Of a stretch of DNA of 64,000 nucleotides, positions 5,535-62,752 are shown piece after piece. The notes beneath the pieces were generated by a model. The model was not told the DNA's origin. It made no database searches and was given only the letters and a program-made list of their open reading frames with translations. Source of the stretch: Escherichia phage vB_EcoM_WL-3; the sequence record MT968995.1; one strand, given 5' to 3'. Numbering within the stretch: position 1 is the first letter of the stretch; each line of letters starts with the position of its first letter. The translations under genes and the position numbers were made by a program.

Positions 5535-5542
5535 TTACATGG
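5535..5542 (+). promoter_or_regulatory. Late promoter (TATAAATA) for uvsW
   Basis: Exact TATAAATA 10 nt upstream of the uvsW ATG. Confidence 0.55.
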
Positions 5543-5551
5543 TATTTAGAC

Positions 5552-15908: not shown

Positions 15909-15916
15909 TTTGTGTT

Positions 15917-15969
15917 CCTCATGTTATGTCAGTAAGATTATTATAACACAATACGAGGGACTTGTAAAC
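15917..15969 (-). promoter_or_regulatory. T4-type early promoter cassette upstream of alt.-3
   Basis: On the - strand: GTTTAC (-35) then TTATAAT (-10); near-identical copy at 31688-31740 upstream of alc. Confidence 0.5.
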
Positions 15970-18026
15970 TACATCTTGAACTTTTTAGACATTCCGTTGA
16001 TGTTAACCAAAGAAGCTAAGATTTGAGAAACTTCGTTTTCCTCTTCTTTTGATTCTTCTACAAGGAATTGATTAAACCCAGCCATTGGACGAACTTCACC
16101 AGTTTCCATCAGATGATCGCCATCATATACCGATTCTTCTAATTGTTCAGAAGGAGGAACGATTGTACCTTCGATTAAATACTTGTTATAAGCAGTTTCT
16201 TTCATCATGTACGTGCTCACTTTATTAATCTTCAGCAAAATTCCACGTGGTAAAATAACTTCAGCTTCTGACGTAAATCCTGATAAATGACCCGGAACGA
16301 TAACTTTGATTCGCTCAGCTCCTTTAATTACCATACCCACGCTAGTTTCAGCATCTTCATTCGCATAAGCAGAATGACTGCCCATATGCATCAAATCTTC
16401 TGCGTCAATTGAACCTTCTCCTTCACCAGAAAATACTGCACTGGAATCATCTAGAGCCATATAGTTTTTACCATACTCACCGAAGATATTTGGTTTAAGC
16501 GATGTGGATACGAAGTTCTTAAAATAGAACATTTTATTTTCAATATTATGACGTAAAGTTTTAAAGGTAACTTCTTGGCCACGGTAAAGCGTAGTTCCTG
16601 GAGGAAGAACTGATCCTTTGGCAAAAGCAGAATCCATCGTCTCGATGTGTTTAATAGCTCGTTCCATATATTCTTCACGAGTAGAATCCGGTTTACCTAA
16701 AAGGAACGAGTTCATTTCAACATATGAATCTGCGCAATAATCTTCAATTACATCAGACTCAGCCCGAGTTAATCCTTTTGGGGGTACTTCAGTACTTGCA
16801 TATTCATACGCTTGAGAAGCAGACTCATTAATCAATTTATAAATGCCATTCATGACAAATTGAATAATAGCTACCTTTTCATCTGGCGTGGCTTTAGAAC
16901 CTTTAACTAAATCATTGACAATTTTCTTAATAACATCAAAGCTATTAGAAATATTAATGTCAGCAAGATCGCTTAAAATTTTATCAGTTTTATAATCAAA
17001 AAATTCTTTATTCTTTAAATATTCTTGAGAACCTTGATGTGTTATATCGCTCTGCAGTCTGATAGACGGATCACGTAAACGTGCATGGGCCAATGCAATA
17101 TGATTTCGGAAGCTTTTTAGTTCATAATCACTAGATTTAAAACGAGAAGCACTCCTCATACCACCGATAGCTCCTTTGCCGAAGTTTGAACCAATCTGAA
17201 TAACGCCAGAGTTCATTGGTCCTTCTGCTTTATATACCGGAACTTTAGATTCAAACTCTTGATATTTCTTAGCAGCGAAACTATCGCCCTGAAGTGAAGC
17301 ATCGACAGTAGAGTATTGAGCTTGTGCTGCTAATCGACGACTAATTTTAGTTTTCTGAATAACAGCTTGATCCGTGCGCTTATCATTTTCTAAAGCAATA
17401 GAAGCGGCAACAGCAACAGCTTTAGGAACAGCATTACCTGTTTTAACGTCTACATAAACATCACCAACCTTTGATTCAACTTTTGTGAATAACTCAGTTG
17501 AAATAGGAGGTACACCTGGAATGTCTTCTAAATTGGCATTTTTACGGTAAACCATAATATATGCATACTTTTTATCGTAATCCCAGATTTCCTTTAAAAG
17601 AACATATCGACCTGCTCCTTTAGTACGTACTAAACGGTCAGCAATAACTTGAATTTGTCGAGCTGCGCCATTTGTTTTACTCTTTAGTACGCGGAACAGG
17701 CATGCGTCAATTTTATACTGTTTCATTGTTTGAAGAGCAGTATCAAAAACCGCATTAATAACACCAATTGGATTTCCACCCAAGTTTTTAAGTTTAACTA
17801 ATGATAGTTTCTCATTGACACCTATCATTACGATATGCATCATTTTATCGCCTGGCTTAACGTTTTTATTTGTATCACCGCCAGAGGTGTATGTGCAAAA
17901 TCTAAATCCAGGAAGCACGCTTTCTTCACCGGCTTGAATAGCAAAAATTTGAGGTATTTTATGCTTAGGATTTAAGTTAACAACCGGCGCCGAAGCGCCG
18001 TCAAATAATTCTGTAATAAGTTCCAT
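15969..18026 (-). CDS. Alt-family ADP-ribosyltransferase paralog
   Basis: 685-aa ORF; N-terminus MELITELFD shared with Alt; C-terminal ART motifs YRGQ, FVSTSL, EAEVILP. Confidence 0.8.
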   Translation of the reverse strand: MELITELFDGASAPVVNLNPKHKIPQIFAIQAGEESVLPGFRFCTYTSGGDTNKNVKPGDKMMHIVMIGVNEKLSLVKLKNLGGNPIGVINAVFDTALQTMKQYKIDACLFRVLKSKTNGAARQIQVIADRLVRTKGAGRYVLLKEIWDYDKKYAYIMVYRKNANLEDIPGVPPISTELFTKVESKVGDVYVDVKTGNAVPKAVAVAASIALENDKRTDQAVIQKTKISRRLAAQAQYSTVDASLQGDSFAAKKYQEFESKVPVYKAEGPMNSGVIQIGSNFGKGAIGGMRSASRFKSSDYELKSFRNHIALAHARLRDPSIRLQSDITHQGSQEYLKNKEFFDYKTDKILSDLADINISNSFDVIKKIVNDLVKGSKATPDEKVAIIQFVMNGIYKLINESASQAYEYASTEVPPKGLTRAESDVIEDYCADSYVEMNSFLLGKPDSTREEYMERAIKHIETMDSAFAKGSVLPPGTTLYRGQEVTFKTLRHNIENKMFYFKNFVSTSLKPNIFGEYGKNYMALDDSSAVFSGEGEGSIDAEDLMHMGSHSAYANEDAETSVGMVIKGAERIKVIVPGHLSGFTSEAEVILPRGILLKINKVSTYMMKETAYNKYLIEGTIVPPSEQLEESVYDGDHLMETGEVRPMAGFNQFLVEESKEEENEVSQILASLVNINGMSKKFKM

Positions 18027-18029
18027 GAT

Positions 18030-20126
18030 TTATCCTTGAACGAACTTGTAAGGCATGTTTGTAATATCTATGCAAGACGCAATAATTCCGAGAGATGATT
18101 CTGCTTTCTGTTTAACATTTGATGAAACAAATGATGCAAAGTCAACTCTGTCTTCTATTTCAATATCACCTGTCATTGCAACTACTTCACCAGTTTCCAT
18201 TAAATGGTCTCCATCATAAATTACTGATTCGGTGAGTTCTTCTGTAGTCATAACTTCAGATTGAATGAGTTTTGTATTATTAGATGTTGTTCCGTCATTA
18301 TTAGAAGCATCAGTTATTTTATTAACTTTGACCATCAATCCGCGCGGTAGAATAACTTCAGCTTCTGTTGCTATTCCGAGACTTCCTGGATATACAACAT
18401 TAACTTTATGAGCTCCATCAATTGCCCATCCTATTTGAACTTTAACGTATTCAGGATTTTCTTTATACGCTCTTATTTCGTTTGGATTAATAGTTATTCC
18501 TTCTTCATTTTTATCAACTGTCAATTCATTACGAGCTTCTGGTTCTAAAAGACCAATACCAGCATGTGTAATTCCAAAACGTCCAAAAATGATAGGAGTT
18601 AAAGAAGTAGATACAAAATTTCTGAAATAGAACACTTTATTTTTAACTAGTGCTTCGTATATAGGAGCAGTCATACTTTGAGCACGATAAACTGTAATGC
18701 CTTCTGGTATACGGTCACCATTTTCAAAAGCTGAATCTAAGTTATTTATAGCAGATTCAATTTCTTTTTCACTCATTACATCATATCGTTCTGGATTGTA
18801 ACGACCCAAAAGAAGATTATTGATGTCAGTATATCCTGAACCACAATACTCTCTAATGCCGCGCTTTTGTGATGGAGTATATTTAGAACCATCACGGGCA
18901 ATAGTAATATCAATCATTGGACCTGCACCAATTCCAGAAAAACTATAAATCATTCGTTTGAGGAATTTAGTTTTTGCTGCGTTCCAGGAATTTTTAGTTA
19001 TTTCTTCCCAGACTTCATCTGGCTGTCCTTTACGGGTTTTATTATGTTTATCAAGCCAAGTATCTTTATATTCTTCAAAGAATTTATTAACAGCTGCTGC
19101 GTATTTCTCTAAACATTTTATTGAAGTAGTTGGTTCATTTTTAATCGCATTAAGAATTACATCTTTAATTTTTTCAGAAACTTCATTAACCTCACTTTTT
19201 GAAAAGAATTTATAGTCATAGTGAAGTTCATCTGCGGTTCCTTCGGCAATGATTTTTGCTGCCTTAGTTTTAGAAGCTAATGAATTAATTCCAAGCTTCA
19301 TTTCTTCTGCTTCGGGAATTAAAGGAGCTGTAGCAGGTTTATTGAAATTAGCTGCAGTAGATTCATACTTCTGGAATAATTCGCTTTCAAATCTAGAAGA
19401 TTCTAATGATTGACTTTGCGCAATTGCTCTACGGGAAATTTTAACTTTAACAATAACAGCTTGGTCAGAACGTTTATCATTTTCTTGTGCAATAGATGCT
19501 GCAATTGCCTCATTTTTAGTTACTTGAGCTCCAGTATCTTTATTGATATAAACATCGCCGACTTTCGATTCAACTTTAGTAAAGAGCTCGGTACTAATTT
19601 CCGGAACTCCTGGAATGTCTTCTAGTGATACATTTTTGCGATGTATAAGAATATATGCATACTTTTTATCGTAATCCCAGAGTTCCTTAAGAAGGACGTA
19701 TCTGCCACCTGAACGACTACGAATAAGTCTATCAGCAATAACTTGAATTTGTCGAGCTTGACCAGCAGTTTTAGACTTAAGAATACGGAGCATACAGGCA
19801 TCAATTTTATACTGACGCATCGTCTGCATTGCAACAGTAAAAACTGAATTGATATAATTAATTGGGCTTGGACCGAGACCTTTTAATTTAGCAATTGAAC
19901 CTTTAGCAGTTAATGTAAAAGGAACAATATGCATCATTTTATCGCCCATTTTTAAATCGCGATTAGTATCACCTCCAGATGTATAGGTACATAAACGAAA
20001 GCCTGGTTGTTCAATTGCGTCATCGACATGAACTGAAAAAATTTGTGGTATTTTCTTCTTTGGATTTAAGTTTGTAATCGGAAGAGTAGTATCTTCGTCA
20101 AATAATTCTGTAATGAGTTCCATCAT
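18030..20126 (-). CDS. alt: Alt, ADP-ribosyltransferase packaged in the head
   Basis: 698-aa ORF (alternative ATG at 20123); motifs YRAQ, FVSTSL, EAEVILP; T4 position next to gene 30. Confidence 0.85.
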   Translation of the reverse strand: MMELITELFDEDTTLPITNLNPKKKIPQIFSVHVDDAIEQPGFRLCTYTSGGDTNRDLKMGDKMMHIVPFTLTAKGSIAKLKGLGPSPINYINSVFTVAMQTMRQYKIDACMLRILKSKTAGQARQIQVIADRLIRSRSGGRYVLLKELWDYDKKYAYILIHRKNVSLEDIPGVPEISTELFTKVESKVGDVYINKDTGAQVTKNEAIAASIAQENDKRSDQAVIVKVKISRRAIAQSQSLESSRFESELFQKYESTAANFNKPATAPLIPEAEEMKLGINSLASKTKAAKIIAEGTADELHYDYKFFSKSEVNEVSEKIKDVILNAIKNEPTTSIKCLEKYAAAVNKFFEEYKDTWLDKHNKTRKGQPDEVWEEITKNSWNAAKTKFLKRMIYSFSGIGAGPMIDITIARDGSKYTPSQKRGIREYCGSGYTDINNLLLGRYNPERYDVMSEKEIESAINNLDSAFENGDRIPEGITVYRAQSMTAPIYEALVKNKVFYFRNFVSTSLTPIIFGRFGITHAGIGLLEPEARNELTVDKNEEGITINPNEIRAYKENPEYVKVQIGWAIDGAHKVNVVYPGSLGIATEAEVILPRGLMVKVNKITDASNNDGTTSNNTKLIQSEVMTTEELTESVIYDGDHLMETGEVVAMTGDIEIEDRVDFASFVSSNVKQKAESSLGIIASCIDITNMPYKFVQG

Positions 20127-20146
20127 ATCCTCTCTAGTGTTTATTC

Positions 20147-24538: not shown

Positions 24539-24871
24539 TTATTTTACTACTTTCCAGTGCTGCATGTCAAGTTTACCAACTTTTTTCATCTTCTCAATTA
24601 AGCGTTCTGCACGTTGGCGAGCTGTAACATAATACCATTCACCTAATTCATTTTGTTCAATTTTTCCAACGATTACTGTATTCAATTCATAAATCCAACC
24701 AGTAAAGAAATTATGAACTTGAATTGTAAAGGTGAAATCTGTTCCCATACCTTCTGTTGTTTCTACTTCAATAATATCACCTTCAACTGCCATTAAGAAC
24801 CACATAGTTTCGTTATATTCACCATTGAAACATTTAGCTTTAACCGCAGCGTTCAGATTAATCGTTTTCAT
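24539..24871 (-). CDS. 30.8: Small protein (30.8 position)
   Basis: 110-aa ORF; early promoter (GTTTAC at 24923-24928) upstream. Confidence 0.55.
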   Translation of the reverse strand: MKTINLNAAVKAKCFNGEYNETMWFLMAVEGDIIEVETTEGMGTDFTFTIQVHNFFTGWIYELNTVIVGKIEQNELGEWYYVTARQRAERLIEKMKKVGKLDMQHWKVVK

Positions 24872-24981
24872 TTTATTCTCCTTTGTTTGTGTAAGATAAT
24901 ACTATCACAAAGGAACCATACTGTAAACAACTTTGTGCAATCTTTGGAAAATAAAAAAGGACTCCCGAAGGAGTCCTCAAC

Positions 24982-27602: not shown

Positions 27603-27835
27603 AGTACGCCATACACCCTTTGTGCTTCAACTAATCCATCAAAATCCAATTTGAGATGTGTTATTTGGTCACCATCACCTGGATTCACAATTACTAATAC
27701 CGAACGAGGAGTTTCGGTAATAACACGAACCGACGTTTCAGGAAATCGTTCAGAAACCTTATTTACCAATTCTTGAGCAAATAGTTTAACTTTTTCTTGG
27801 AATTCTTTAACAGTAATTGGTTTTTCGCTTAGCAT
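27599..27835 (-). CDS. cd.2: Small protein (cd.2 position)
   Basis: 78-aa ORF. Confidence 0.5.
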   Translation of the reverse strand: MLSEKPITVKEFQEKVKLFAQELVNKVSERFPETSVRVITETPRSVLVIVNPGDGDQITHLKLDFDGLVEAQRVYGVL

Positions 27836-28356
27836 GTTGATCCTAGCTCCTTACTTTCAACATTTTTAACTAATTTGACAGAAACTAATTCAGCATCTTG
27901 GGTAATCATTACCGGACCTTCTTCATGCTCTTCAAGATATTCTAGAGCTTTCTTTTTAGCTTCTTCCTTCGTATCAGTTTGAGCATAGATATAGAACATA
28001 CAACCAGTAATACCTACTACTTTCCACTTAATTTCTTTATCAGTTTTAATTTCAAATTTACTTACAGAATCATCTTTTTGAACTTCTTCGAAAAAAGAAT
28101 ATTCTAACATATAAGCAATTGAAAATAACGGGCTAACTTTATAGGATTCACCCATTACATCAACAGCTTTATACCAACAATCATCAATTTCACGTTTAAT
28201 GCTAATAACATTTTTCGCAGGATCTATTTTTACTTTAAATGAATTTTCCCCAATAAACTGGGCAATTCGTTTATTAGCCCCGCAAGTTTCATTAAAAATA
28301 TCTTTATACCCAGTTTTAAAGCGATAAACCTTATCTTCTTCAAACCATTCGCTCAT
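27829..28356 (-). CDS. cd.3: Protein (cd.3 position)
   Basis: 175-aa ORF; early promoter with stem-loop upstream (28377-28416). Confidence 0.55.
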   Translation of the reverse strand: MSEWFEEDKVYRFKTGYKDIFNETCGANKRIAQFIGENSFKVKIDPAKNVISIKREIDDCWYKAVDVMGESYKVSPLFSIAYMLEYSFFEEVQKDDSVSKFEIKTDKEIKWKVVGITGCMFYIYAQTDTKEEAKKKALEYLEEHEEGPVMITQDAELVSVKLVKNVESKELGSTC

Positions 28357-28896: not shown

Positions 28897-30311
<1,415 letters not shown>

Positions 30312-31679: not shown

Positions 31680-31687
31680 CATAAAGT

Positions 31688-31740
31688 CCTCATGTTATGT
31701 CAGTAAGACTACTATAACACAACACGAGGGACTTGTAAAC
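31688..31740 (-). promoter_or_regulatory. Early promoter cassette upstream of alc (paralogous to 15917-15969)
   Basis: About 53 bp roughly 90% identical to the cassette upstream of alt.-3; GTTTAC and TATAGTAGT elements. Confidence 0.5.
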
Positions 31741-33358: not shown

Positions 33359-34537
33359 TTAAAAGTATTTTTTAAAACTCATCATAACTTTATCATCAAC
33401 ATCATTATCAATCTGTGCAACAAGATAAGATGACAGTTCTACTTCTTGTGGCGCTGATTGAACATTATCAGAATTAAGATATTCACGAATCCAAGGATAT
33501 GGATGTTTAACCGGAGCATCGGTAATTGGGCATGGAAGACCACACTGTTTCATACGAGATACAGTTAAGTAATCAATAAAGCTCCACATGCTATTTGTAT
33601 TTAATCCAGGAACATCGCCATCTTTAAATAAATGAACTGCCCAATCTTTTTCTTGGCGGTTAACTTCCATGAAAATATCAACTGCTTCTTGTTCACACTC
33701 TTGAGCAATTTTAACCCATTGATCGCCATCAGTACCAGATTGAAGTTGACGAATAATATATTGTGTACCTTTAAGATGAAGCTGCTCATCACGTGCAATA
33801 AATTTCATAATCTTCGCATTACCTTCCATGATTTCCATGTTCTTATGGAAGTTGAAAGTACATGCAAAGGATACATAAAAACGAATAGCTTCCAGAGCAT
33901 TGATAACGTGCAGACAGAGATAAAGCGACTTCATTAGCTCACGCTTCCAATATGTCTCATGCTCAATAGCATCTTCAATAACGTCTTCGTCTGCATTAAT
34001 TTCTTTTTGGTATTCGATATCAGCTTTAGCGTTTTCCCAATAACGAGTTTTAATCAGAACATCATCATAATAACGTCCAATGGATTCAGCACGTTTCATA
34101 ATAGCTTCATCTAATACAATTTCATCAAATACCTTCGATGGATCAGTATAAAGATTTCGCATGATATGAGTATATGAACGACTGTGAATAGTTTCACTAA
34201 AAGTCCATGTAGCAACCCATGTATCAAGGCTTGGGTCTGAAATTAATGACATAAGTACAGCAGATGGCGCGCGACCCTGAATGCTATCTAAAAGTGATTG
34301 ATACTTCAAGTTGTTAGTAAAAATATTTTGCTGATACTGAGGAAGCTTATTAAACTGTGCAGCATCCATCATCAAGTTTACTTCTTCAGGACGCCAGAAA
34401 AATGATAATTGCTTTTCGGTTAAATCTTCAAAAACTTTATGACGTTGAATATCATAACGCGCAATACCAAGACCTGAACCAAAAAACATAGGTTCTTTTA
34501 AAACGTCAACTGGATTTGTATTAAAAACTGTGCTCAT
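33359..34537 (-). CDS. nrdB: Ribonucleotide reductase small subunit NrdB (uninterrupted, no intron)
   Basis: Continuous 392-aa ORF containing the diiron-ligand EExxH-type segments. Confidence 0.9.
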   Translation of the reverse strand: MSTVFNTNPVDVLKEPMFFGSGLGIARYDIQRHKVFEDLTEKQLSFFWRPEEVNLMMDAAQFNKLPQYQQNIFTNNLKYQSLLDSIQGRAPSAVLMSLISDPSLDTWVATWTFSETIHSRSYTHIMRNLYTDPSKVFDEIVLDEAIMKRAESIGRYYDDVLIKTRYWENAKADIEYQKEINADEDVIEDAIEHETYWKRELMKSLYLCLHVINALEAIRFYVSFACTFNFHKNMEIMEGNAKIMKFIARDEQLHLKGTQYIIRQLQSGTDGDQWVKIAQECEQEAVDIFMEVNRQEKDWAVHLFKDGDVPGLNTNSMWSFIDYLTVSRMKQCGLPCPITDAPVKHPYPWIREYLNSDNVQSAPQEVELSSYLVAQIDNDVDDKVMMSFKKYF

Positions 34538-34588
34538 AAATTTTCCGCTTAGTTAATAGTTGGTGACTCGTCCGTGAGTCAAATTATA

Positions 34589-36853
34589 TCATAATTTACA
34601 GGATGAACAATCTTCAGCTTTTGGAGTTTCTATTTCATAATCATCAGTACCAGAACCATCGCGGGTATTATGATAATAGAAATTTTTTCCGCCAAAATAC
34701 CAAAAATACAAAAGGTCATCAATCATTATTGACATTGGAACCTTTCCTTTAGGGAAGATTTGGGGGTCATAGTATGTATTCGCTGAAGCTGATTGACATA
34801 CCCATTTCAGCATAATAGCTACTTGCGTAAGATAAGGTTTATTACCTTTCTTAGCTAATTTCCATGTATAATCATAGAGGTCTATGTTATGCTCAATATT
34901 GGGCACGACTTGATTAAAGGAACCCTCTTTTGATTCTTTAACACTTACCGGTCCACGTGGAGGCTCGATACCGTTTGTACTGTTAGAAACTTGGGAAGAT
35001 GACTCACATGGCATAAGTGCTGATAATGTGCTATTACGGATGCCAAAGAGCTTAAGGTCTTCCCGCAGCGACGACCAGTCACAAACGTATTTTGGAGCTG
35101 CGATTTGGTCAATCTTTTTATTGTACCAGTCGATAGGTAATTCGCCTCGAGACCAACGAGTGTCTGAATAATATTCGCAAGGTCCTTTTTCTTTGGCGAG
35201 CTTAATGGATGCTTTAATGAGTCCATACTGTAATCTCTCAAATAGTTCATGTGTTAAATCGTTAGCATCTTCATAAGAAGCAAAGTTACTTGCCAGCCAA
35301 GCTGCATAGTTAGTAACACCTACACCAAGGTTACGACGCCTTTTAGCTTTTTCTGCTTCAGGAACTGGATATCCTTGGTAATCCAAAAGATTATCAAGAG
35401 CACGAACTTGGACTTCTGCCAATTCATTAATTTTATCTTGGTCTTGCCAATCGAAGTTATCCAACACAAATGCAGATAACGTGCACAATCCAATTTCAGC
35501 ATCAGGGCTATTCACATCATTTGTTGGAATAGCAATTTCACAGCACAAGTTACTCTGACGAATAGGTGCCTTTTCACGAATAAACGGAGTATAGTTATTC
35601 GTATTATCAATGAACTGCACATAAATCCTTGCTGTTCCTGAACGTTCAGTCATGAGCAATTCAAATAGTTCACGGGCTTTAATACGCTTTTTGCGAATAT
35701 TAGGGTCTTTTTCTGCTGCTTCGTATAATTCACGGAAACGGTCTTGGTCTTTAAAATAAGAATAATAAAGCTCGCCACCCATTTCATGCGGACTGAACAA
35801 AGTAATGTAATCGTTCTTTCCGAATCGTTCCATCATCAAATCATTCAGCTGAACACCATAATCCATATGACGGATACGGTTTTCTTCTACACCTTTGTTA
35901 TTTTTCAAAACGAGAAGATTTTCAACTTCCAAATGCCAAATAGGATAATAAGCAGTAGCAGCGCCGCCACGAATTCCACCCTGTGAACATGATTTAACAG
36001 CAGTCTGAAAATGTTTCCAAAAAGGAATAACGCCAGTATGACGTACTTCACCTGTGCCAATCTTAGAACCTTCAGCACGAATCATACCAACGTTAATGCC
36101 AATTCCAGCTCGTTTAGAAATATACTCAACAATTGAAGCAGAAGCCTTATTAATAGACTTTAATGAATCACCTGCCTCAATAACAACACATGAACTAAAC
36201 TGTCGAGTTGGAGTACGACAACCAGCCATAATAGGAGTTGGCAGTGAAATCTGTCGAGTGGATACTGCTTCATAAAAACGGATAACGTGTTTTAATCTAT
36301 CAACAGGTTCATCTTGATGCAATGCCATTCCAATAGTCATAAATGCAAACTGTGGAGTTTCATAAATTTGACCAGTGGTTTTATCTTTAACAAGATATTT
36401 TTCTTTTAATTGCATCGCCCCGGAATAAGTAAATTCCATATCCCGCTCGTGCTTAATTTTTGATTCTAAAAATGTAATTTCTTCTGCAGAATATTTTGAC
36501 AACAATTCAGGGTCGTATTTACCTTCATTTACACAGTAAGAAATATGGTCAATAAATGAACGCGGTTCATATTGCCCATAAACATGCTTACGAAGAGCGA
36601 ACATTAAACAGCGTGCAGCTACGTATTGATAATCAGGCTCTTCAACTGAAATAGAATTCGCAGCAGCCTTAATTACAATGGTTTGAATGTCATCAGTTGT
36701 CATTCCATCACGGAGATATGATTTAATATTTTCATATAATTCATAAGGATCTACTGATGTTCCTTCAGCTGCCCAAGATAAAACTTTAATAATTTTTTGT
36801 GGGTCAAAGCTCTGAGAAACACCACTACTTTTGATAACATTAATTAATTGCAT
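34589..36853 (-). CDS. nrdA: Ribonucleotide reductase large subunit NrdA
   Basis: 754-aa ORF with class Ia RNR active-site cysteines. Confidence 0.95.
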   Translation of the reverse strand: MQLINVIKSSGVSQSFDPQKIIKVLSWAAEGTSVDPYELYENIKSYLRDGMTTDDIQTIVIKAAANSISVEEPDYQYVAARCLMFALRKHVYGQYEPRSFIDHISYCVNEGKYDPELLSKYSAEEITFLESKIKHERDMEFTYSGAMQLKEKYLVKDKTTGQIYETPQFAFMTIGMALHQDEPVDRLKHVIRFYEAVSTRQISLPTPIMAGCRTPTRQFSSCVVIEAGDSLKSINKASASIVEYISKRAGIGINVGMIRAEGSKIGTGEVRHTGVIPFWKHFQTAVKSCSQGGIRGGAATAYYPIWHLEVENLLVLKNNKGVEENRIRHMDYGVQLNDLMMERFGKNDYITLFSPHEMGGELYYSYFKDQDRFRELYEAAEKDPNIRKKRIKARELFELLMTERSGTARIYVQFIDNTNNYTPFIREKAPIRQSNLCCEIAIPTNDVNSPDAEIGLCTLSAFVLDNFDWQDQDKINELAEVQVRALDNLLDYQGYPVPEAEKAKRRRNLGVGVTNYAAWLASNFASYEDANDLTHELFERLQYGLIKASIKLAKEKGPCEYYSDTRWSRGELPIDWYNKKIDQIAAPKYVCDWSSLREDLKLFGIRNSTLSALMPCESSSQVSNSTNGIEPPRGPVSVKESKEGSFNQVVPNIEHNIDLYDYTWKLAKKGNKPYLTQVAIMLKWVCQSASANTYYDPQIFPKGKVPMSIMIDDLLYFWYFGGKNFYYHNTRDGSGTDDYEIETPKAEDCSSCKL

Positions 36854-39287: not shown

Positions 39288-39332
39288 TTAGTACCTTATA
39301 TAAATTATAATACATTTTATGAAGCTAAATAA

Positions 39333-39692
39333 TCAATACGGTTTAGCATCAAATTTTCTTTCGATTTCAGGAGTGAAATATAATTCTTTACCACGTTTGG
39401 AAAAACGACCAATAATATGATAATTATTCTCATCAAACGTGATATTGCCAATATCCATAGCTTTCAACCAAATATCGATATTTCTATCCAGCTTTATATC
39501 AAAATTCCAATACGGAGAACTATTACCGAAAATACTGCAAGCGGATTCAGTGAAACAACTGCTATAAATTTTGTCTTTGGGAACTACTAATTGATAGACG
39601 CCTTTAATAAACTGAGGACCCTGCCATTTTGGTTGTTTCGCGTCTTTTTCTAATAGAATAGGGTAATAATTAAAGTTCATATTTTCCGCCAC
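39333..39692 (-). CDS. Hypothetical protein inserted between frd and td
   Basis: 119-aa ORF filling a roughly 410-bp spacer; no recognisable domain. Confidence 0.5.
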   Translation of the reverse strand: MAENMNFNYYPILLEKDAKQPKWQGPQFIKGVYQLVVPKDKIYSSCFTESACSIFGNSSPYWNFDIKLDRNIDIWLKAMDIGNITFDENNYHIIGRFSKRGKELYFTPEIERKFDAKPY

Positions 39693-39700
39693 GCGTTATT

Positions 39701-40285
<585 letters not shown>

Positions 40286-40528
40286 TCAAAACCCCCTTTC
40301 AATAAACCATTCAGCGGCTTTATTAGCATCAAAGAATAATTCTTCATATGTCTTTTCTTTGTTTTCAAAAACTGTCACACAAACACGTTGACATTCTCCA
40401 CAGTATTCTTCTGACATACTCAAAGCGTCAGAAAACATTTCATTAAATTCATTTAAATCAGGATTATGCAATGCGTTAAAAATTGCATAATCGAATTCAT
40501 CATTCATAAATTCAAATACAAAAATCAT
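40286..40528 (-). CDS. frd.1: Small acidic protein (frd.1 position)
   Basis: 80-aa ORF. Confidence 0.5.
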   Translation of the reverse strand: MIFVFEFMNDEFDYAIFNALHNPDLNEFNEMFSDALSMSEEYCGECQRVCVTVFENKEKTYEELFFDANKAAEWFIERGF

Positions 40529-40872
40529 ATTATCTCATAATATAAAGGATCAGGAACATATCCACTGGCTTTAATCATTTTAATTAACGTTAACATTCCT
40601 TTATTAACTGCTCGTGAAATTTCATCAAAAACTTCATCACTAAAAAGTTCTAACACGCCCTTCTGAACTTTTAATTTACACCCAACAATTTCGTCATCGC
40701 CTATAGTAAATTCGTTTCCGCCAATTCCACCGAAAAACTTAATTGCACCAGTCAACTGTCTTCCACGAGAATATGGGTCGTGTGATAAAGTAATATGAGT
40801 CACCCCAGGTACAGTTTTAAATTGGCAACGGATGTTTACTTGGGCAATTCCAGTTACGTGAATGTCAGACAT
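40525..40872 (-). CDS. frd.2: Small protein (frd.2 position)
   Basis: 115-aa ORF. Confidence 0.5.
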   Translation of the reverse strand: MSDIHVTGIAQVNIRCQFKTVPGVTHITLSHDPYSRGRQLTGAIKFFGGIGGNEFTIGDDEIVGCKLKVQKGVLELFSDEVFDEISRAVNKGMLTLIKMIKASGYVPDPLYYEII

Positions 40873-40882
40873 AATATTTTCC

Positions 40883-41125
40883 TCAAACAGACTTTTTCAC
40901 AATTTTCCAATCAGCTTTAAACTGATCGACGTCAGAATGATAAATCCAGAACCCTGCGCTTTCTCCATCCTCATAAAGAGGGCATCCATCGCATTCATCT
41001 TCCCATCCCATGCCACGTAAAAGATGTTCAGCTTTTTCAACAAGTTCAGAATCTTTACCAATGATATTAAAATACCATTTACCTCTAACTTCTGAATCTT
41101 TGATGCTTTGGCGTTGTAATCTCAT
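40883..41125 (-). CDS. frd.3: Small protein (frd.3 position)
   Basis: 80-aa ORF; early promoter with stem-loop upstream (41136-41180). Confidence 0.5.
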   Translation of the reverse strand: MRLQRQSIKDSEVRGKWYFNIIGKDSELVEKAEHLLRGMGWEDECDGCPLYEDGESAGFWIYHSDVDQFKADWKIVKKSV

Positions 41126-41179
41126 TTTATTCTCCTTAGTTGATAGGGTAATAGTATCACACTACTACCCTACTGTAAA

Positions 41180-41560
41180 CTACTTTTTGAAAGTTTTTCG
41201 CAAAAGTTCAATGATTTCATCTACATTGTTTTCGTCTACAATGCAATGAATTTTTGTTACGCCAGAAATCTTGTCTTCGACTTCATCTTCTTCAGAAGTC
41301 GGTTCTTTATACTCGCGGAAACAATGAAATTCGTCTTCACAAATTTCTAAAAGTCTATCTTTGAGGTAAAAATGTTTTCCATTTGCGCATTCAATGTGTT
41401 TTACTGCTTTATATCCATTAGCGACAGAAACTTCTTTAACTTCAAACCATCCGCCATTATCTCGAATAGCTTTAACTATTGATGAATTAGAACGTGGGCT
41501 ATAATTAATAAATGTATCAATAAGTCTTGGAACAAGTTCATACTTTCTACCAGTATACAT
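41180..41560 (-). CDS. Hypothetical Cys/His-containing protein
   Basis: 126-aa ORF preceded by hairpin-GAGGAAAA-ATG. Confidence 0.5.
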   Translation of the reverse strand: MYTGRKYELVPRLIDTFINYSPRSNSSIVKAIRDNGGWFEVKEVSVANGYKAVKHIECANGKHFYLKDRLLEICEDEFHCFREYKEPTSEEDEVEDKISGVTKIHCIVDENNVDEIIELLRKTFKK

Positions 41561-41604: not shown

Positions 41605-41835
41605 TTATTGTTCAATCAGTCCCATATAAAATTCTGCATCTTCAGAATCCATGCCATCACAATATTCATTAGCCATAAAGCGGGTGAGGTCTTCAAGAGG
41701 ACCTTCAATGACAATAGAAAAATTGCAATAATTGGGATCATCATGAATACTTGTGATACTAAGTTCAGGATAACGATTACGAATAATTTCTTCAATATAT
41801 TCAAAATCAACGATGTCAATATCAACTTTAGCCAT
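41605..41835 (-). CDS. Small strongly acidic hypothetical protein
   Basis: 76 aa from ATG 41835 with AAAGAGGAAA RBS; the ORF-track start at 41856 would translate the RBS. Confidence 0.5.
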
Positions 41836-41869
41836 ATTATTTTCCTCTTTAATCATCAGCAGTATTGCC

Positions 41870-41958
41870 GATAGTTGTATAGTACTATAGAAGAACAGAG
41901 GTGTAAACAGTTTTGTGAAAAAATTTTTGAAATAAAAAAGGGGACCTCTAGGGTCCCC
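41870..41958 (-). promoter_or_regulatory. Early promoter plus terminator hairpin cassette (PeSL-like)
   Basis: On the - strand: hairpin ggggaccctagaggtcccc, T-run, GTTTAC, TACTATAC; homologous to 58279-58368 and 62140-62190. Confidence 0.5.
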
Positions 41959-41980: not shown

Positions 41981-42889
41981 TTAAAGGTCATTCAAAAGGT
42001 CATCCAGGTCCGTGTCATCAGCACTAGATGAACTGCCAGAGCTTGAGCTCATAAAATCATCTTCAGTTTTTGTTTTAAAGTCATCAACATTAAATGCATC
42101 CAAATCATCAGCAACTTTATCGGCTTTCTTAGCGGCAGTTGCTGCGGCACCACCCATAGCAGCAGTTCCCATAACTTGACTGAATTTAGTGCTCAGTTCT
42201 TCAAACGATTTGAATTTATCTTTAGAAGTCATTTCAGAAAGGTCAACCATTTGTTCGAACAGTTCTTTCTGGAAAGATTCATCATCAATGTTTGGAATCG
42301 CAGATTGATTCAGGAATTTAGATTCGTCGTAGTTACTAAAACCAGAAACTTGTTTAACTTTCAGTACAAAGTTAGCACCTTCCCACGGACAAGTTACATC
42401 AACCGGAGTTTCACCCATTTCAACATCAACGGCAATCATTGCATTGATTTTATCCCAGATTTTCTTACCGAAACGGTATTTAAATACTTTACCTTCATTT
42501 TCTGGAGCAGCTGGGTCTTTTACTACAAGAATGTTAGCCCAGTAAGAAGTTTTACGTTTAACAAGACCGTACTCTTTATTGTCAGTGTTGTACAAATCAT
42601 TTTTACTGATGTATTGACATACTGGACAAGAATCGTAATCACCGTGGGTAGATGAACAGTTTTCAATATACCATTTACCATTTTTCTTGAAACCGTGATT
42701 TACAAGAATTGCGAATGGTGCTTGTTCATCATTTTTAGACGGAAGAAAACGAATTACTGCTTGACCGTTACCCGCATTATCGAGTTTCAGTTTCCACTCG
42801 CCTTTATCTTCAGAAGAAAAACCACCTTTATTTCCAGCCAGTTTAGCCATTTGTGCAGCGAGTTCAGCAGTAGATTTACGTTTAAACAT
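41981..42889 (-). CDS. 32: gp32 single-stranded DNA-binding protein
   Basis: 302-aa ORF; zinc-binding Cys/His cluster; acidic C-terminal tail; T4 position. Confidence 0.95.
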
Positions 42890-42960
42890 TTTTATTTCCT
42901 TTTTAATTTAATTAACAGTTGGTGCTATGACGATGTATGACCTCATAGCTGGTCAGTGAG
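42890..42960 (-). promoter_or_regulatory. Gene 32 translational operator (A/U-rich leader plus upstream pseudoknot-forming element)
   Basis: On the - strand: TGACCAGCTATGAGGTCATACATCGTCATAGCAC then TTAATTAAATTAAAAAGGAAATAAAA-ATG; late promoter TATAAATA at 42973-42980. Confidence 0.6.
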
Positions 42961-42988
42961 ATAATTATAATCTATTTATAATAAGCAA

Positions 42989-45254: not shown

Positions 45255-48200
45255 ATGGCCGAGATTAAAAGAAAGTTCAGAGCAGAAGACGGTCTGGACG
45301 CAGGTGGCGATAAAATAATCAACGTAGCTTTAGCTGATCGTACCGTAGGAACTGACGGTGTTAACGTTGATTACTTAATTCAAGAAAACACAGTTCAACA
45401 ATATGATCCAACTCGTGGATATTTAAAAGATTTTGTAATCATTTATAATAATCGTTTTTGGGCAGCAACGGATAATATTCCAAAACCTGCTGGAAGTTTT
45501 AATAGAATTCGTTGGAAAGCATTACGTACTGATGCCGTATATACAACCGTATCATCTGGACCATATCAATTAAAATCCGGAGAAGCAATTTCAGTAGATA
45601 CATCAGTTGGTAATGACATTGAGTTTAATTTACCACCTTCTCCGCTTGATGGAGAAACCGTAATAATTCAAGATATTGGTGGAAAACCTGGTATAAATCA
45701 GGTTAAAATAAATTCTTCAAATCAGAGTATTGTTAATTTTAGAGGTGAACAAGTACGTTCAGTTCTAATGACTCATCCAAAGTCACAGATGATATTCATT
45801 TTTAATAATCGTTTGTGGCAAATGTATGCTGCTGATTATAGCAGAGAAGCTGCGATTGTTACTCCATCAACTGCATATCAAGCACAATCTAATGATTTTA
45901 TCGTGCGTAGATTTACTTCCGCTGCGCCGATTAATATTAAACTTCCGAGATTTGCTAATCATGGCGATATTATTAATTCGTGCGTAGATTTACTTCCGCT
46001 GCGCCGATTAATATTAAACTTCCGAGATTTGCTAATCATGGCGATATTATTAATTTCGTTGATTTAGATAAATTAAATCCACTTTATCATACAATTGTCA
46101 CAACATATGATGAAACAACTTCAGTACAAGAAGTTGGAACTCATTCTATTGAAGGCCGTACATCAATTGACGGTTTCTTGATGTTTGATGATAATGAAAA
46201 ATTATGGAGACTGTTTGACGGGGATAGTAAAGCACGTTTACGCATTATAACAACTAATTCTAATATTCGTCCAAATGAAGAAGTTATGGTATTTGGCGCG
46301 AATAACGGAACAGCCCAAACAATTGAACTTCAACTTCCAACCGATATTTCCATTGGTGATACTGTTAAAATTTCCATGAATTACATGAGAAAAGGACAAA
46401 CAGTTAAAATCAAAGCTGCCGGTGAAGATAAAATTGCTTCTTCAGTTCAATTGCTGCAATTCCCAAAACGCTCAGAATATCCACCACCTGAAGCTGAATG
46501 GGTGACTGTCCAAGAATTAGTTTTCAATGGTGAAACTAATTATGTTCCGGTTTTACAACTTGCTTATATAGAAGATTCTGACGGAAAATACTGGGTTGTA
46601 CAACAAAACGTTCCAACGGTTGAAAGAGTCGATTCTTTAAATAATTCTACTAGAGCAAGATTAGGCGTAATAGCTTTAGCTACACAAGCTCAAGCTAACG
46701 TCGATTTAGAAAATTCTCCGCAAAAAGAATTAGCAATTACACCAGAAACATTAGCTAACCGTACTGCTACAGAAACTCGTAGAGGTATCGCAAGAATAGC
46801 AACTACTGCTCAAGTGAATCAGAACACCACATTCTCTTTTGCTGATGACCTTATCATCACTCCTAAAAAGCTGAATGAAAGAACTGCTACAGAAACTCGT
46901 AGAGGTGTAGCTGAAATTGCTACGCAGCAGGAAACTAATACAGGTACTGATGATACTACAATCATCACTCCTAAAAAGCTTCAAGCTCGACAAGGTTCTG
47001 AATCATTATCTGGTATTGTAACCTTTGTATCTACTGCGGGAGCTACTCCAGCTTCTAGTCGCGAATTAAATGGTACAAATGTTTATAATAAAAACACTAA
47101 TAATTTAGTTGTTTCGCCTAAAGCTTTGGATCAGTATAAAGCTACTCCAACACAACAAGGTGCAGTAATTTTAGCAGTTGAAAGTGAAGTAATTGCTGGA
47201 CAAAGCCAAGAAGGATGGGCAAATGCGGTTGTAACGCCAGAAACGTTACATAAAAAGACATCAACTGATGGAAGAATTGGTTTAATTGAGATTGCTACGC
47301 AAAGTGAAGTTAATACAGGAACTGATTATACTCGCGCAGTCACTCCTAAAACTTTAAATGACCGTAAAGCAACTGAAAGTTTAACTGGTATAGCTGAAAT
47401 TGCTACGCAAGTTGAATTCGACGCAGGCGTCGACGATACTCGTATCTCTACACCATTAAAAATTAAAACCAGATTTAATAGTACTGATCGTACTTCTGTT
47501 GTTGCTCTGTCTGGATTAGTTGAATCAGGAACTCTCTGGGACCATTATACCCTTAATATTCTTGAAGCAAATGAGACACAACGTGGTACACTTCGTGTAG
47601 CTACACAAGTTGAAGCTGCTGCAGGAACATTGGATAATGTTCTAATAACTCCTAAAAAGCTTTTAGGTACTAAATCTACTGAAGCGCAGGAAGGTGTTAT
47701 TAAAGTTGCAACTCGGTCTGAAACTGTAGCTGGAACGTCAGCAAATACTGCTGTATCTCCAAAAAATTTAAAATGGATTGTGCAGAGTGAACCTACTTGG
47801 GCAGCTACTACTGCGATAAGAGGTTTTGTTAAAACCTCATCCGGTTCAATTACATTCGTTGGTAATGATACAGCTGGTTCTACGCAGGACTTAGAACTAT
47901 ATGAGAAAAATAACTATGCAGTATCACCATATGAATTAAACCGCGTATTAGCAAATTATTTGCCGTTAAAAGCAAAAGCTGTAGATAGTAATTTATTAGA
48001 TGGTTTAGATTCACTCCAGTTCATTCGTAGGGATATTGCGCAGACGGTTAATGGTTCACTAACCTTAACACAACAAACGAATCTGAGTGCCCCTCTTGTA
48101 TCATCTAGTACTGCTACGTTTGGTGGATCAGTTTCGGCAAATAGTACATTAACTATTTCTAATACTGGAACGGCAACTCGTCTTATTTTTGAAAAAGGGC

Positions 48201-49204
48201 CTCAAACTGGGACGAACCCAGCTCAAACGATGACAGTCAGAGTGTGGGGAAATCAATTCAGCAGTGAATCGGACACAACACGTTCTACTGTATTTGAAGT
48301 TAGTGATGAAACGTCTAGTCACTTTTATTCTCAGCGCAATAAAGCTGGTAATATAACATTTAATATCAATGGTACAGTAACACCGATAAATGTGAATGCT
48401 TCAGGAACATTGAATGCGAATGGCGTTGCAACATTCGGTAGTTCAGTTACTGCTAATGGCGAATTTATCAGTAAATCGTCGAATGCTTTTAGAGCAATAA
48501 ATGGTGATTATGGATTCTTTATTCGTAATGATGGTGCTAACACCTATTTTATGCTTACTGCATCTGGTGATCAGACCGGTGGATTTAATGGATTACGTCC
48601 TTTATCTATTAATAATGCATCTGGTCAAGTAACGATTGGTGAAAGCTTAATCATTGCCAAAGGTGCTACTATAAGTTCAGGTGGTTTAACTGTTAACTCG
48701 AGAATTCGTTCTCAGGGTACTAAAACCTCTGATTTATATACCCGTGCGCCAACATCTGATACTGTAGGATTCTGGTCAATCGATATTAATGATTCAGCCA
48801 CTTATAACCAGTTCCCGGGTTATTTTAAAATGGTTGAAAAAACTAATGAAGTGACTGGACTTCCATACTTAGAACGTGGCGAAGAAGTTAAATCTCCCGG
48901 TACATTGACTCAGTTTGGTAACACACTTGATTCGCTTTACCAAGATTGGATTACTTATCCAACTACCCCAGAAGCGCGCACCACTCGCTGGACACGCACA
49001 TGGCAGAAAACCAAAAACTCTTGGTCAAGTTTTGTTCAGGTATTTGATGGGGGTAACCCTCCTCAACCTTCGGATATAGGAGCGATCCCATCTGATAACG
49101 GAATAATAGGTAATCTTACTATTCGTGATTTCTTGCGAATTGGTAATGTTCGCATTATTCCTGACCCAGTGAATAAAACTGTTAAATTTGAGTGGATTGA
49201 ATAA
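45255..49204 (+). pseudogene. 34: Gene 34 long tail fibre proximal subunit, interrupted by a frameshifting 77-bp tandem duplication
   Basis: Two ORFs (45255-46067 and 45980-49204) share RFTSAAPINIKLPRFANHGDIIN; deleting one 77-bp copy gives a single 3873-nt ORF. Confidence 0.85.
45899..46055 (+). repeat. Perfect tandem direct repeat, 2 copies of 77 bp
   Basis: Sequence at 45901-45977 is identical to 45978-46054; period 77 is not a multiple of 3. Confidence 0.95.
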
Positions 49205-57610: not shown

Positions 57611-58246
57611 TCACAGTTCAGATGCTACGGTGATTACTGCTTCAATGTTTTCTGCCGAGCGTTTAATGTCAAGATACACATTACCGTTTTTAGCGATTTT
57701 ACATGACATTCCGATATCAGTAAATTTCTGAATATGATGTTCCATCATTTTGTATCCAAAAATTCGCATATTTCCATTGTTGTTAATTTCAAAATTACGA
57801 ATTCCGTGAGTGCGTTTTTCTAAAATAGCGAGATAGTTACTACGATAAGTTTCAACCTTTTTAAGAACAAATCCATTTTCATCTAAAAGTTTTAACATGA
57901 AGTCTTTATCTTCTTCCATATCAGAAGTAATCTCGCGAGCTTTACGTGTTGCTCGTTTTTTCAGCAGTTCAGGAGCGTTTTCCTGCGCGTATAAAGTTGC
58001 CGCATTTGAAATAATATCCTGAGCTTCACCTGTAATGATTAATCCATCACCAGATTTCTCCACCAGGCCTTTTTTAATCAATACCCCAATATTACTATTA
58101 ACTACTGCATTACCTAAATCTGGATGCACCTCACGAACTTCTGCGGCTGTAATGAAATCTTTCTTAGCAATGGTAATTAAAATCGCAGCAGTTTTTTCAT
58201 TCAGAACATCGTTAGAAGCTTTGATGATGTAAGTTACTTTAGACAT
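57611..58246 (-). CDS. motA: MotA middle-transcription activator
   Basis: 211-aa ORF; T4 size and position. Confidence 0.9.
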   Translation of the reverse strand: MSKVTYIIKASNDVLNEKTAAILITIAKKDFITAAEVREVHPDLGNAVVNSNIGVLIKKGLVEKSGDGLIITGEAQDIISNAATLYAQENAPELLKKRATRKAREITSDMEEDKDFMLKLLDENGFVLKKVETYRSNYLAILEKRTHGIRNFEINNNGNMRIFGYKMMEHHIQKFTDIGMSCKIAKNGNVYLDIKRSAENIEAVITVASEL

Positions 58247-58278
58247 TTTCTAATCTCCGTAATTCTGTATCAGTAGTT

Positions 58279-58368
58279 GATAGTTGTATAGTACCACAGT
58301 ATGCTTTGGTTGTAAACCGTTTTGTGAAAAATTTTTGAAATAAAAAAGGGAGAGCCTCGGCTCTCCCT
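58279..58368 (-). promoter_or_regulatory. Terminator hairpin plus early promoter cassette upstream of motA (PeSL-like)
   Basis: On the - strand: hairpin gggagagccgaggctctccc, TTTTTT, GTTTAC, TACTATAC; homologous to 41870-41958. Confidence 0.55.
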
Positions 58369-61389: not shown

Positions 61390-61457
61390 CATTTTCTGTT
61401 CCTCCGTAGTTGATAGGGTAATAATACCACAGAGGAACAGTCTTGTAAACAACTTTT

Positions 61458-61556: not shown

Positions 61557-61642
61557 AATAACCTCATCACAAAAGTAAATGTTAAACAAATTAATGGAAT
61601 ACTAATTAACCAAATAAAACACCACCACCACAATGAACTCAT
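61553..61642 (-). CDS. Small hydrophobic peptide
   Basis: 29-aa ORF found by hand (MSSLWWWCFIWLISIPLICLTFTFVMRLL); ATGA overlap with the upstream ORF. Confidence 0.3.
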   Translation of the reverse strand: MSSLWWWCFIWLISIPLICLTFTFVMRLL

Positions 61643-61911
61643 AGTTCAATCTCAGCGATTTTCATTTCATTACTATTAATAGCCGCTTTAAGACTATCTG
61701 AAAGAATTACATTCCAGTGGTCATTCATATGACCATTAACTAAGCGTGTAATTTCTTCGGGAGTTGAAAAATAAGGCGTATCAGACTCCCAGTGCGATAG
61801 TCCCAAGCGAGTATAAATCATACCTTCATCATCGCTAGAATATTCAACTGACACAAACTCATCAGTTATTTTATGTTTAGCGTAATAAAATTTAAATTTC
61901 ATTTTACTCAA
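61639..61911 (-). CDS. Small protein
   Basis: 90-aa ORF. Confidence 0.5.
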   Translation of the reverse strand: MSKMKFKFYYAKHKITDEFVSVEYSSDDEGMIYTRLGLSHWESDTPYFSTPEEITRLVNGHMNDHWNVILSDSLKAAINSNEMKIAEIEL

Positions 61912-62114
61912 TAATCCGCTAAAAGATCGACAATTGCATCACGAAGACACTTATTCGCAATACGTTTAAGAGCAATTTCAGTTTCTGGAGCATTTTGAAT
62001 AATCATTGAATTCAATTCAGCCTCAGCAAACTGAAGTTCTTTAACTAATTCAGCTTTATATTTTCCTTGCCCTTTCTTAGCTTTTGCTCGTTTTAATTCA
62101 GCTGTAGTAAACAT
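61908..62114 (-). CDS. Small Lys-rich protein
   Basis: 68 aa from the internal ATG at 62114; an early promoter cassette (62140-62190) lies inside the longer ORF-track version. Confidence 0.45.
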   Translation of the reverse strand: MFTTAELKRAKAKKGQGKYKAELVKELQFAEAELNSMIIQNAPETEIALKRIANKCLRDAIVDLLADY

Positions 62115-62194
62115 TTTATTCTCCAAATCCGTATCAGTTGATAGTTGTATAGTACCACAGTCCTTGTGGTTTGTAAACCGTTTTGTGAAATTTT

Positions 62195-62752
62195 TTAAAT
62201 GGAAAGATACCATCCGTTGTAGTTGCTTTTTCTTACAACCTTACGAAGGTCTTCTCTATCACCGATGAACTTCGGAGTGTACTGGATGACACCTGGATGA
62301 ATTTCTTTAGTGTTGAATATAATTATACAGTCAGCGACTTGATGATTCAGAATGGGCCCTAGATTTATTCCAGAACCGTATGGATACTCCCCGCTGCATC
62401 CGGTTGTTACCGAAATCCAACGTGAGTCAGTTTGATGTGTTTTGACTTCTACACGAAGCCCACAGTATTTTGGATGCGCCAATACATCCCATGCGTATGT
62501 ATACGGGTCATTAACATCCTCTTGGCCTTTGTTAACATACCCGCTCAGCCAATCTGCTACAAAAAACTCTGCATACACAGCGATACGGCATCTTTCGATA
62601 ACTTCTGCTTTATCCTGATTTGGATTTTGTTTTAGAGAGTATCTTGCTGTATCAGCAATTTTGACCTTCATTTCACTAGTCAAGTCACTGTTCGATAGGG
62701 TAAATGTCGGAATCTGAAATAGTCTCTGTAAACCTGGATTCGTTTTCTGCAT
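62195..62752 (-). CDS. denB: Endonuclease IV
   Basis: 185-aa ORF; T4 size and position adjacent to rIIB. Confidence 0.8.
   Translation of the reverse strand: MQKTNPGLQRLFQIPTFTLSNSDLTSEMKVKIADTARYSLKQNPNQDKAEVIERCRIAVYAEFFVADWLSGYVNKGQEDVNDPYTYAWDVLAHPKYCGLRVEVKTHQTDSRWISVTTGCSGEYPYGSGINLGPILNHQVADCIIIFNTKEIHPGVIQYTPKFIGDREDLRKVVRKSNYNGWYLSI

Follow-up and report, generated by a model that had tools for sequence, protein, structure and literature searches.

Three putative early-promoter cassettes of the T4 type, two of them with upstream terminator hairpins, in Escherichia phage vB_EcoM_WL-3

The stretch of Escherichia phage vB_EcoM_WL-3 analysed here (64,000 nucleotides of record MT968995.1, hereafter the window) carries three dispersed cassettes on the minus strand, namely copy A (41870-41958), copy B (58279-58368) and copy C (62140-62190). 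Very probably, these represent one subfamily of T4 early promoters (Pe), which is joined to a terminator in promoter-early stem-loop (PeSL) units at A and B, and whose members are homologous repeats that exchange sequence with one another and serve module exchange. Cassettes of this kind are already known as T4 early promoters and PeSLs, and the sites themselves are already annotated in GenBank. The window belongs to a Tequatrovirus; its best matches are T4-like coliphages (Tequatrovirus genomes), and it aligns collinearly with T4 105.8-168.9 kb (~94-98% identity).

Copies, gene context and promoter anatomy

The 16-mer GTACTATACAACTATC has exactly three exact matches in the window (41870-41885, 58279-58294 and 62140-62155), and the same is true of TTTCACAAAACNGTTTAC (41903-41920, 58312-58329 and 62173-62190), which bears out the claim of an earlier sequence-only reading that three dispersed copies lie at these places, all on the minus strand. 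When up to three mismatches are allowed, 0.55 matches of GTACTATACAACTATC and 0.66 matches of TTTCACAAAACNGTTTAC are expected by chance; five were observed for TTTCACAAAACNGTTTAC, a number equalled in 0/100 shuffles. An nhmmer profile of the family scored copies A, B and C at 77-89 bits (E 1e-23 to 1e-26), with the next best site of the window at 34 bits, and a self-comparison of the window for repeats recovered the family independently as families D2 and D13. The same reading had described the copies as near-identical over 60-90 bp, which was overstated. Between the foot of the hairpin and about +30, gapped identity amounts to 76% for A and B, 80% for B and C and 65% for A and C; in other words, ~90 nt compare at 65-80% identity, with exact blocks of 16-40 nt. 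Identity is confined to two blocks, one comprising the UP region and the -35 (~40 nt for A-B, ~20 nt for B-C) and the other the -10 and the initially transcribed region (16-30 nt), while the three copies have unrelated spacers of 17-18 nt between these blocks and are block-wise mosaics.

The gene 32 stop codon (41981-41983) and a homologue of frd.3 flank copy A, a motA.1-like ORF and motA flank copy B, and the denB stop codon (62195-62197) is where copy C begins, ahead of two small ORFs that are followed by ndd.6. The earlier placement of the copies upstream of gene 32, motA and denB holds for motA at copy B, and has to be corrected for the other two, copy A being downstream of gene 32 and copy C downstream of denB. 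All three have T4 orthologues at the same loci, at 146875 for A, 163673 for B and 167086 for C; copy B is near-identical to its T4 counterpart, differing from it slightly at two places in the A/T-rich upstream part of the aligned stretch. In record OL960581, copies B and C are labelled 'similar to phage T4 early promoter', for which the motif GTTTAC(N14)gtggTAttaT was used, and in other GenBank records the intervals that match A and B bear promoter and terminator annotations.

From their sequence, copies A, B and C read as strong sigma-70 early promoters of the T4 type. The promoter cassette of copy A (41833-41939, minus strand) comprises a T-run and an A/T-rich UP region, a -35 element GTTTAC at 41903-41908 and a -10 element TACTAT at 41879-41884; AAGAGGA occurs in its leader, and the frd.3 homologue (MAKVDIDIV...) opens with the ATG at 41833-41835. 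The cassette of copy B (58244-58346, minus strand) likewise has an UP region, with GTTTAC at 58312-58317, TGG plus the -10 TACTAT at 58288-58293, a leader containing GGAG and the motA ATG at 58244-58246. In the cassette of copy C (62112-62201, minus strand), which goes without a terminator, GTTTAC is found at 62173-62178 and TGG plus the -10 TACTAT at 62149-62154, and the leader contains GGAGAATAAA, the ATG at 62112-62114 opening a 68-aa ORF. The gap between GTTTAC and TACTAT is 18 nt in all three copies (TTTACA-17-TACTAT by a generic promoter scan), and the claim that each copy contains GTTTAC early-promoter elements on the minus strand is thus confirmed, with -35, gap and TACTAT all in place. 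The A/T-rich UP region reads TTTTTTATTTCAAAAATTTTT(T)CACAAAAC in A and B and CATTTAAAAAATTTCACAAAAC in C, and the leader measures 25-45 nt and ends in an SD-ATG in every copy. An extended -10 with its TG is present in B and C (TGGTACTAT, generic scan), whereas copy A of the window reads TAGTACTAT ahead of the -10 (TAG, no TG) and the T4 copy A has TGG.

T4 early promoters were reportedly described by Liebig and Rueger in 1989, by Wilkens and Rueger, and by Miller et al. in 2003. Like copies A, B and C, they lie on the counter-clockwise strand and combine an A/T-rich UP region, a GTTTAC -35, an 18-nt gap and a TAYWAT -10, which is of the (TG)nTAYWAT form in B and C; the window differs in that its copy A has lost the extended -10 TG and carries another spacer than T4, and neither difference is essential. 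Elsewhere, T4 early promoters have been characterised as 'uber' UP/-35/TGn/-10 promoters with additional consensus regions, and MotA has been listed as an early product (Hinton 2010, PMC2988021).

Terminator hairpins and spacer-leader stems

A GC-rich hairpin with a T-run had been claimed to precede the first two copies, and this was found at both A and B, with copy C lacking the hairpin. The stem-loop of copy A (41940-41958, minus strand), GGGGACC-CTAGA-GGTCCCC followed by T6 at 41934-41939, corresponds to the intrinsic terminator of gene 32; its GGGGACC/GGTCCCC hairpin folds at -14.3 kcal/mol, and terminators are annotated in the copy A interval in the SA20RB, fPS-2 and Lutter records. The stem-loop of copy B (58347-58368, minus strand), the predicted terminator after the motA.1-like ORF, has the form AGGGAGAGC-CGAG-GCTCTCCCT followed by a T-run. 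Its AGGGAGAGC/GCUCUCCCU hairpin folds at -20.1 kcal/mol (z -4.7), is terminator-like by scan and is followed by T6; OL960581 and MK327929 carry a terminator annotation for it. At copy C, no terminator hairpin was found; a weak 6-bp spacer stem (ACCACA/UGUGGU) is present and the whole region folds at -8.6 kcal/mol, and copy C is at best a 'half' PeSL. In addition, the window has a composite of terminator and early promoter at 24869-24978 (minus strand), in which a hairpin AGGACTCC-TTCG-GGAGTCCT (-17.7 kcal/mol, z -3.9) and a T-run are followed by GTTTAC at 24923-24928. An Rfam scan of the whole window returned no family at its gathering score.

With such an anatomy, unmodified host sigma-70 RNA polymerase would be expected to read each cassette right after infection, making use of the A/T-rich UP region, the GTTTAC(A) -35, the 18-nt gap (17 if counted from TTTACA to TACTAT), the TGn in B and C and the TACTAT -10. 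Transcription would then cross the conserved 25-45 nt leader to the SD-ATG of frd.3 at A, of motA at B and of the small ORF at C, while the upstream intrinsic terminator would close the preceding unit, i.e., gene 32 at A and 52-motA.1 at B. Terminator and promoter at A and B may together form an insulating cassette, the composite named PeSL, and both initiation and termination in vivo at these exact sites are predicted for the window phage. As direct repeats of 60-110 bp, the cassettes could moreover provide short homology tracts at which relatives infecting the same cell gain, lose or trade small ORF modules.

The motif GTTTAC-N18-TAnnnT occurs at 12 sites of the window, all on the minus strand and all followed by an SD-ATG, among them the asiA, rnh and alc promoters, and a strict motif with an SD-ATG filter yielded 33 early promoters in the whole T4 genome. 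A stem between spacer and leader, with the -10 in its loop, was found at 8 of the 12 window promoters and at ~13 of the 33 T4 promoters (~40%); examples in the window are the promoters at 61450, 31740, 15969, 28416, 24536 and 41180, and copies A, B and C have weak versions. The mean energy of the spacer-leader duplex was -11.8 kcal/mol for cognate versus -7.2 kcal/mol for non-cognate pairs in T4 (0/20,000 permutations), and -11.7 versus -7.4 kcal/mol in the window (1/20,000 permutations), while the mean folding energy was -14.8 kcal/mol compared with -9.3 +/- 0.4 kcal/mol when the spacers were shuffled. Similar stems exist at several orthologous promoters of RB69. The stem at the 61450 locus occurs in eight variants whose changes are mostly wobble-compatible transitions, a divergence too small to inform on covariation. 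A strong -10 stem is present at 0/6 T4 promoters with an upstream terminator and at 13/27 of the others (Fisher P 0.035, Mann-Whitney P 0.07), and the notion that terminator and strong stem are alternatives has the status of a trend only. Stem-loops between the -35 and -10, or overlapping the -10, are listed among the PeSL subclasses of RB49 and phi1 (Arbiol 2010, PMC2839356), and the stems described here are therefore not new.

The idea that these stems sequester the SD in read-through RNA was considered and rejected, as the SD is paired in 11/33 promoters versus 9.1 +/- 2.1 with shuffled spacers, and in 37.6% of non-cognate chimeras. For the T4 genes e, soc, 49 and I-TevI, a late promoter lies within a hairpin and SD sequestration has been established by experiment (Uzan and Miller 2010, PMC3014915). 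Other early promoters of the window resemble these in having the -10 in a stem that upstream transcripts can form and local ones cannot; however, the promoters concerned there are late ones, and the SD pairing seen here is no commoner than with shuffled spacers.

Homology and block exchange among the cassettes

The A/B/C-type subfamily, defined by TACTATACAAC(T/C)ATC, has ~8 members in T4, where those beyond the A, B and C loci lie upstream of e.8, mobD.5, nrdC.10, nrdC.8 and imm.1; the earlier count of at least three copies is right for the window, and the T4 genome-wide family is larger. A stricter pattern gave 5 exact matches in one complete IMG/VR genome. The upstream block tttcacaaaRYnGTTTAC is common to many other T4 early promoters and is therefore a consensus of the whole class, while the -10/leader block is specific to the subfamily. 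Another subfamily, marked by TATTATTACCCTATC, includes an early promoter cassette at 61390-61450 (minus strand), 728 bp downstream of C, with a 15-bp stem of -23.2 kcal/mol that overlaps the -10, and one at 41123-41180 (minus strand), downstream of A, with a -10-overlapping stem of -17.8 kcal/mol. As well, the early promoters at 15916-15969 and 31687-31740 (minus strand), which lie 15.8 kb apart and are 94% identical over 54 nt, make up a second paralogous cassette subfamily. Their identity takes in the spacer, the -10 and the leader through the SD, and a stem of 13-17 bp overlaps the -10 in both; one of them is situated in the alt region, the other is the alc promoter, and the corresponding T4 pair is at 123093 and 136336.

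At locus A, the 18-nt spacer of T4, AAGCATAAAGCTTTATGG, is identical at 18/18 positions to the spacer of the copy at the nrdC.10 locus, while the window and two relatives (L006 and L010) carry at the same locus an unrelated spacer, of the type found at the e.8 and imm.1 loci. Judged by identity band, locus A apparently holds the cassette of the T4 type in ~76/501 relatives. Moreover, in one relative (L031) the promoter at the 61450 locus has an A/B/C-type -10/leader block in place of TACCCTATC. Since the sequence of the spacer is not needed for polymerase contact, these patterns of swapping point to recombination or gene conversion between paralogous cassettes and not to convergence; they indicate that the copies are probably homologous and keep exchanging blocks, beyond what selection for polymerase contacts would maintain.

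If the copies were alike only by convergent selection for the strongest sigma-70 promoter, with neither homology nor recombination behind them, this would fit the recurrence of tttcacaaaRYnGTTTAC in many T4 early promoters that differ elsewhere, and the extended common consensus for which T4 early promoters are known (PMC2988021). Such an origin is nevertheless very unlikely, because the identity reaches positions outside polymerase contact, e.g., ACAACTATCAACTRCTGATAC in the transcribed leader, because two paralogous T4 loci have the same spacer while the orthologous locus of other phages has an unrelated one, and because whole blocks have been swapped between subfamilies. Alternatively, the shared blocks outside the hexamers could belong to a regulatory subclass of early promoters that is read by a phage factor, for example the Alt-modified RNA polymerase alpha-CTD or an early shut-off function. 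Promoters with identical -35/TGn/-10 elements are known to differ in their stimulation by Alt, the determinant being unknown (Hinton 2010, PMC2988021), the mechanism of early shut-off is not understood (Uzan and Miller 2010, PMC3014915), and the ~8 members in T4 have the same -10/leader block. Yet frd.3, motA, ndd.6, e.8, imm.1, nrdC.8, nrdC.10 and mobD.5 have no evident common function or need of timing, and recombination is a simpler account of the block swapping, so that a subclass of this kind is unlikely; it is improbable, too, that CACAAAAC by the -35 and ACAACTATCAAC in the leader mark it and that block-wise gene conversion keeps it uniform.

An interpretation of the cassettes as autonomous mobile elements, whether resembling miniature transposons or associated with homing endonucleases, would agree with their dispersed, multi-copy occurrence and the indels adjoining them, and was rejected as extremely improbable: the copies have neither terminal inverted repeats nor target-site duplications nor an associated transposase or other enzyme, the places where T4 and the window differ in homing endonucleases (segD, segE, segG, mobE and the nrdB intron) are elsewhere, and both the orientation of the copies and their position with respect to a start codon are fixed.

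Module boundaries and comparison with known PeSLs

The preferred reading, in which homologous early-promoter cassettes serve module exchange, can be compared with gene content among relatives. A DenB-based locus search in IMG/VR gave 8 loci, a number too small for population counts, for which the GenBank phage collection was used instead. At locus C, the arrangement of the window is kept in 114/506 related GenBank phage records, and in a sample of 40 rows spread over the ranking, homology ends after ACAACTATCAACT (62136-62139) in ~45% and at the ATG (62112-62115) in ~30%. The variable module behind C (61639-62111, minus strand) contains two ORFs, one of 68 aa (61908-62114) and one of 87 aa (61639-61902), both of which are missing from T4 except for the last 8 codons (MKIAEIEL) of the second. 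Three gene contents were found behind C, i.e., two ORFs and ndd.6 in the window, one ORF and ndd.6 in some relatives (L013, L021, L022 and L025), which lack only the first ORF of the module, and ndd.6 alone in T4. On its other side, the 61450 cassette brackets, together with copy C, a variable ndd.5/ndd.6 module. The indel between T4 and the window at C joins the cassette SD-ATG to a site inside an ORF across ~9 nt of microhomology (AATAAAATG/AATGAAATG). Judging by this junction, the deletion in T4 has the SD-ATG of the cassette as one end and was not a PeSL-to-PeSL crossover.

At locus B, ~340 bp of extra DNA is present in ~1/3 of the sampled full-length matches. In two relatives (D5505 and L016), the extra DNA is a 75-aa ORF placed between cassette B and a second early promoter that has 23 nt in common with it (CTATCAAATAAATGAACTGAAAC), and this ORF has the organisation of a classic PeSL-flanked module. 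Both flanks of locus A are kept in 495/498 relatives, and copy A is no visible exchange point. The claim that the cassettes bracket variable small-ORF modules consequently stands for C, where 114/506 keep the arrangement, and for B in a subset of relatives, and fails for A, which is conserved in 495/498.

Indel junctions cluster at C and B, and 4/7 indels between T4 and the window adjoin an early promoter (P 0.0097, the null being any of ~85 gene boundaries), where the 7 indels counted are those other than homing-endonuclease or intron differences. Some of this clustering at promoters is expected from selection alone, as surviving indels must be intergenic, and the small number of junction classes among the 506 genomes may go back to a handful of old events that many of them have inherited. 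Taken as they are, the comparisons support a role of the cassettes as probable module boundaries at C and B, with recombination within the cassettes as the presumed cause of the indels. The T4/window homology break at 41130-41139 adjoins the leader of the 41180 promoter.

PeSLs were defined in RB49 and phi1 as ~100 bp of conserved sequence with an AT-rich region, a sigma-70-like promoter, a stem-loop and an SD-ATG, and their promoter and terminator activity as well as the formation of mini-circles were shown in these phages (Arbiol 2010, PMC2839356). A later paper recognised PeSLs in T4/PST as well, gave their consensus as TTTACW-N17-TAYWAT and illustrated an ndd.4/.5 exchange, which falls within the denB-ndd region of the present study (Comeau, Arbiol and Krisch 2014, PMC4122927). 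Copies A, B and C have the same composite anatomy, with ~100 bp conserved in dispersed intergenic copies and, at C and in a subset of relatives at B, adjoining ORFs that vary between close relatives; they fit the T4/PST consensus, and exchange in the ndd region has already been published. The resemblance to T4-type PeSL cassettes proposed in the sequence-only reading was right in its core, since these are early promoters and two of them have an upstream terminator hairpin. They differ from the published PeSLs in that copy C has no stable stem-loop, that the neighbourhood of copy A is invariant, and that the junction of at least one adjacent indel shows microhomology and is not PeSL-PeSL. Conserved A+T-rich promoter blocks have also been described as flanking interchangeable small ORFs at the internal-protein (IP) loci of T-even phages, in the account of Repoila et al. 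(1994) that is cited in PMC4122927; the layout is the same as that of the cassettes, and the loci concerned (ipI-III) are different ones, outside the window.

For annotation, the results mark three early transcription-unit starts and two terminators, and flag the denB-ndd interval as a hyperplastic spot. In addition, they provide small new examples of PeSL behaviour, namely the three gene contents behind C, the promoter-flanked ORF before motA and the swapping of spacers between paralogues; these comparative examples leave the published picture of PeSLs unchanged.

Several other differences between the window and T4 were observed. Compared with T4, the window has four insertions of 300-520 bp (27835-28353, 29992-30304, 39291-39695 and 40294-40815), situated at the gene boundaries cd.3/cd.2, pseT.1/pseT, frd/td and frd.1/frd; only that at 27835-28353 adjoins an early promoter (28416), the other three having no recognisable cassette at their ends. 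Diverged direct repeats with a spacing of ~2094 bp and 70-94% identity over shorter stretches (D1, D3, D7, D10-D12 and D18) occupy 15990-20130, and the equivalent region of T4 contains alt and the remnants alt.-1/alt.-2; what the window has there seems to be a tandem pair of diverged, full-length alt-like genes. Homology with T4 breaks there at 15988, which is 19 nt upstream of the -35 of early promoter 15969. Moreover, gene 34, for the proximal long tail fibre, contains a perfect 77-bp tandem duplication (45901-46055, plus strand). As 77 bp is not a multiple of 3, the gene is split into ORFs at 45255-46067 (270 aa) and 45980-49204 (1074 aa). Only one copy is found in T4 and in the 8 best-matching GenBank records listed, where a query of 361 bp has a match 284 bp long. 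The duplication may be genuine (a frameshift mutant), engineered, or an artefact of assembly. The window also goes without T4 segD, segE, mobE (together with nrdB.1), segG and the nrdB intron with I-TevIII, the sites of these absences being 710-771, 5538-5558, 33861-33864, 34537-34593 and 42952-42988. Across the td interval of T4 the match is unbroken, and the td intron is therefore apparently present in the window.
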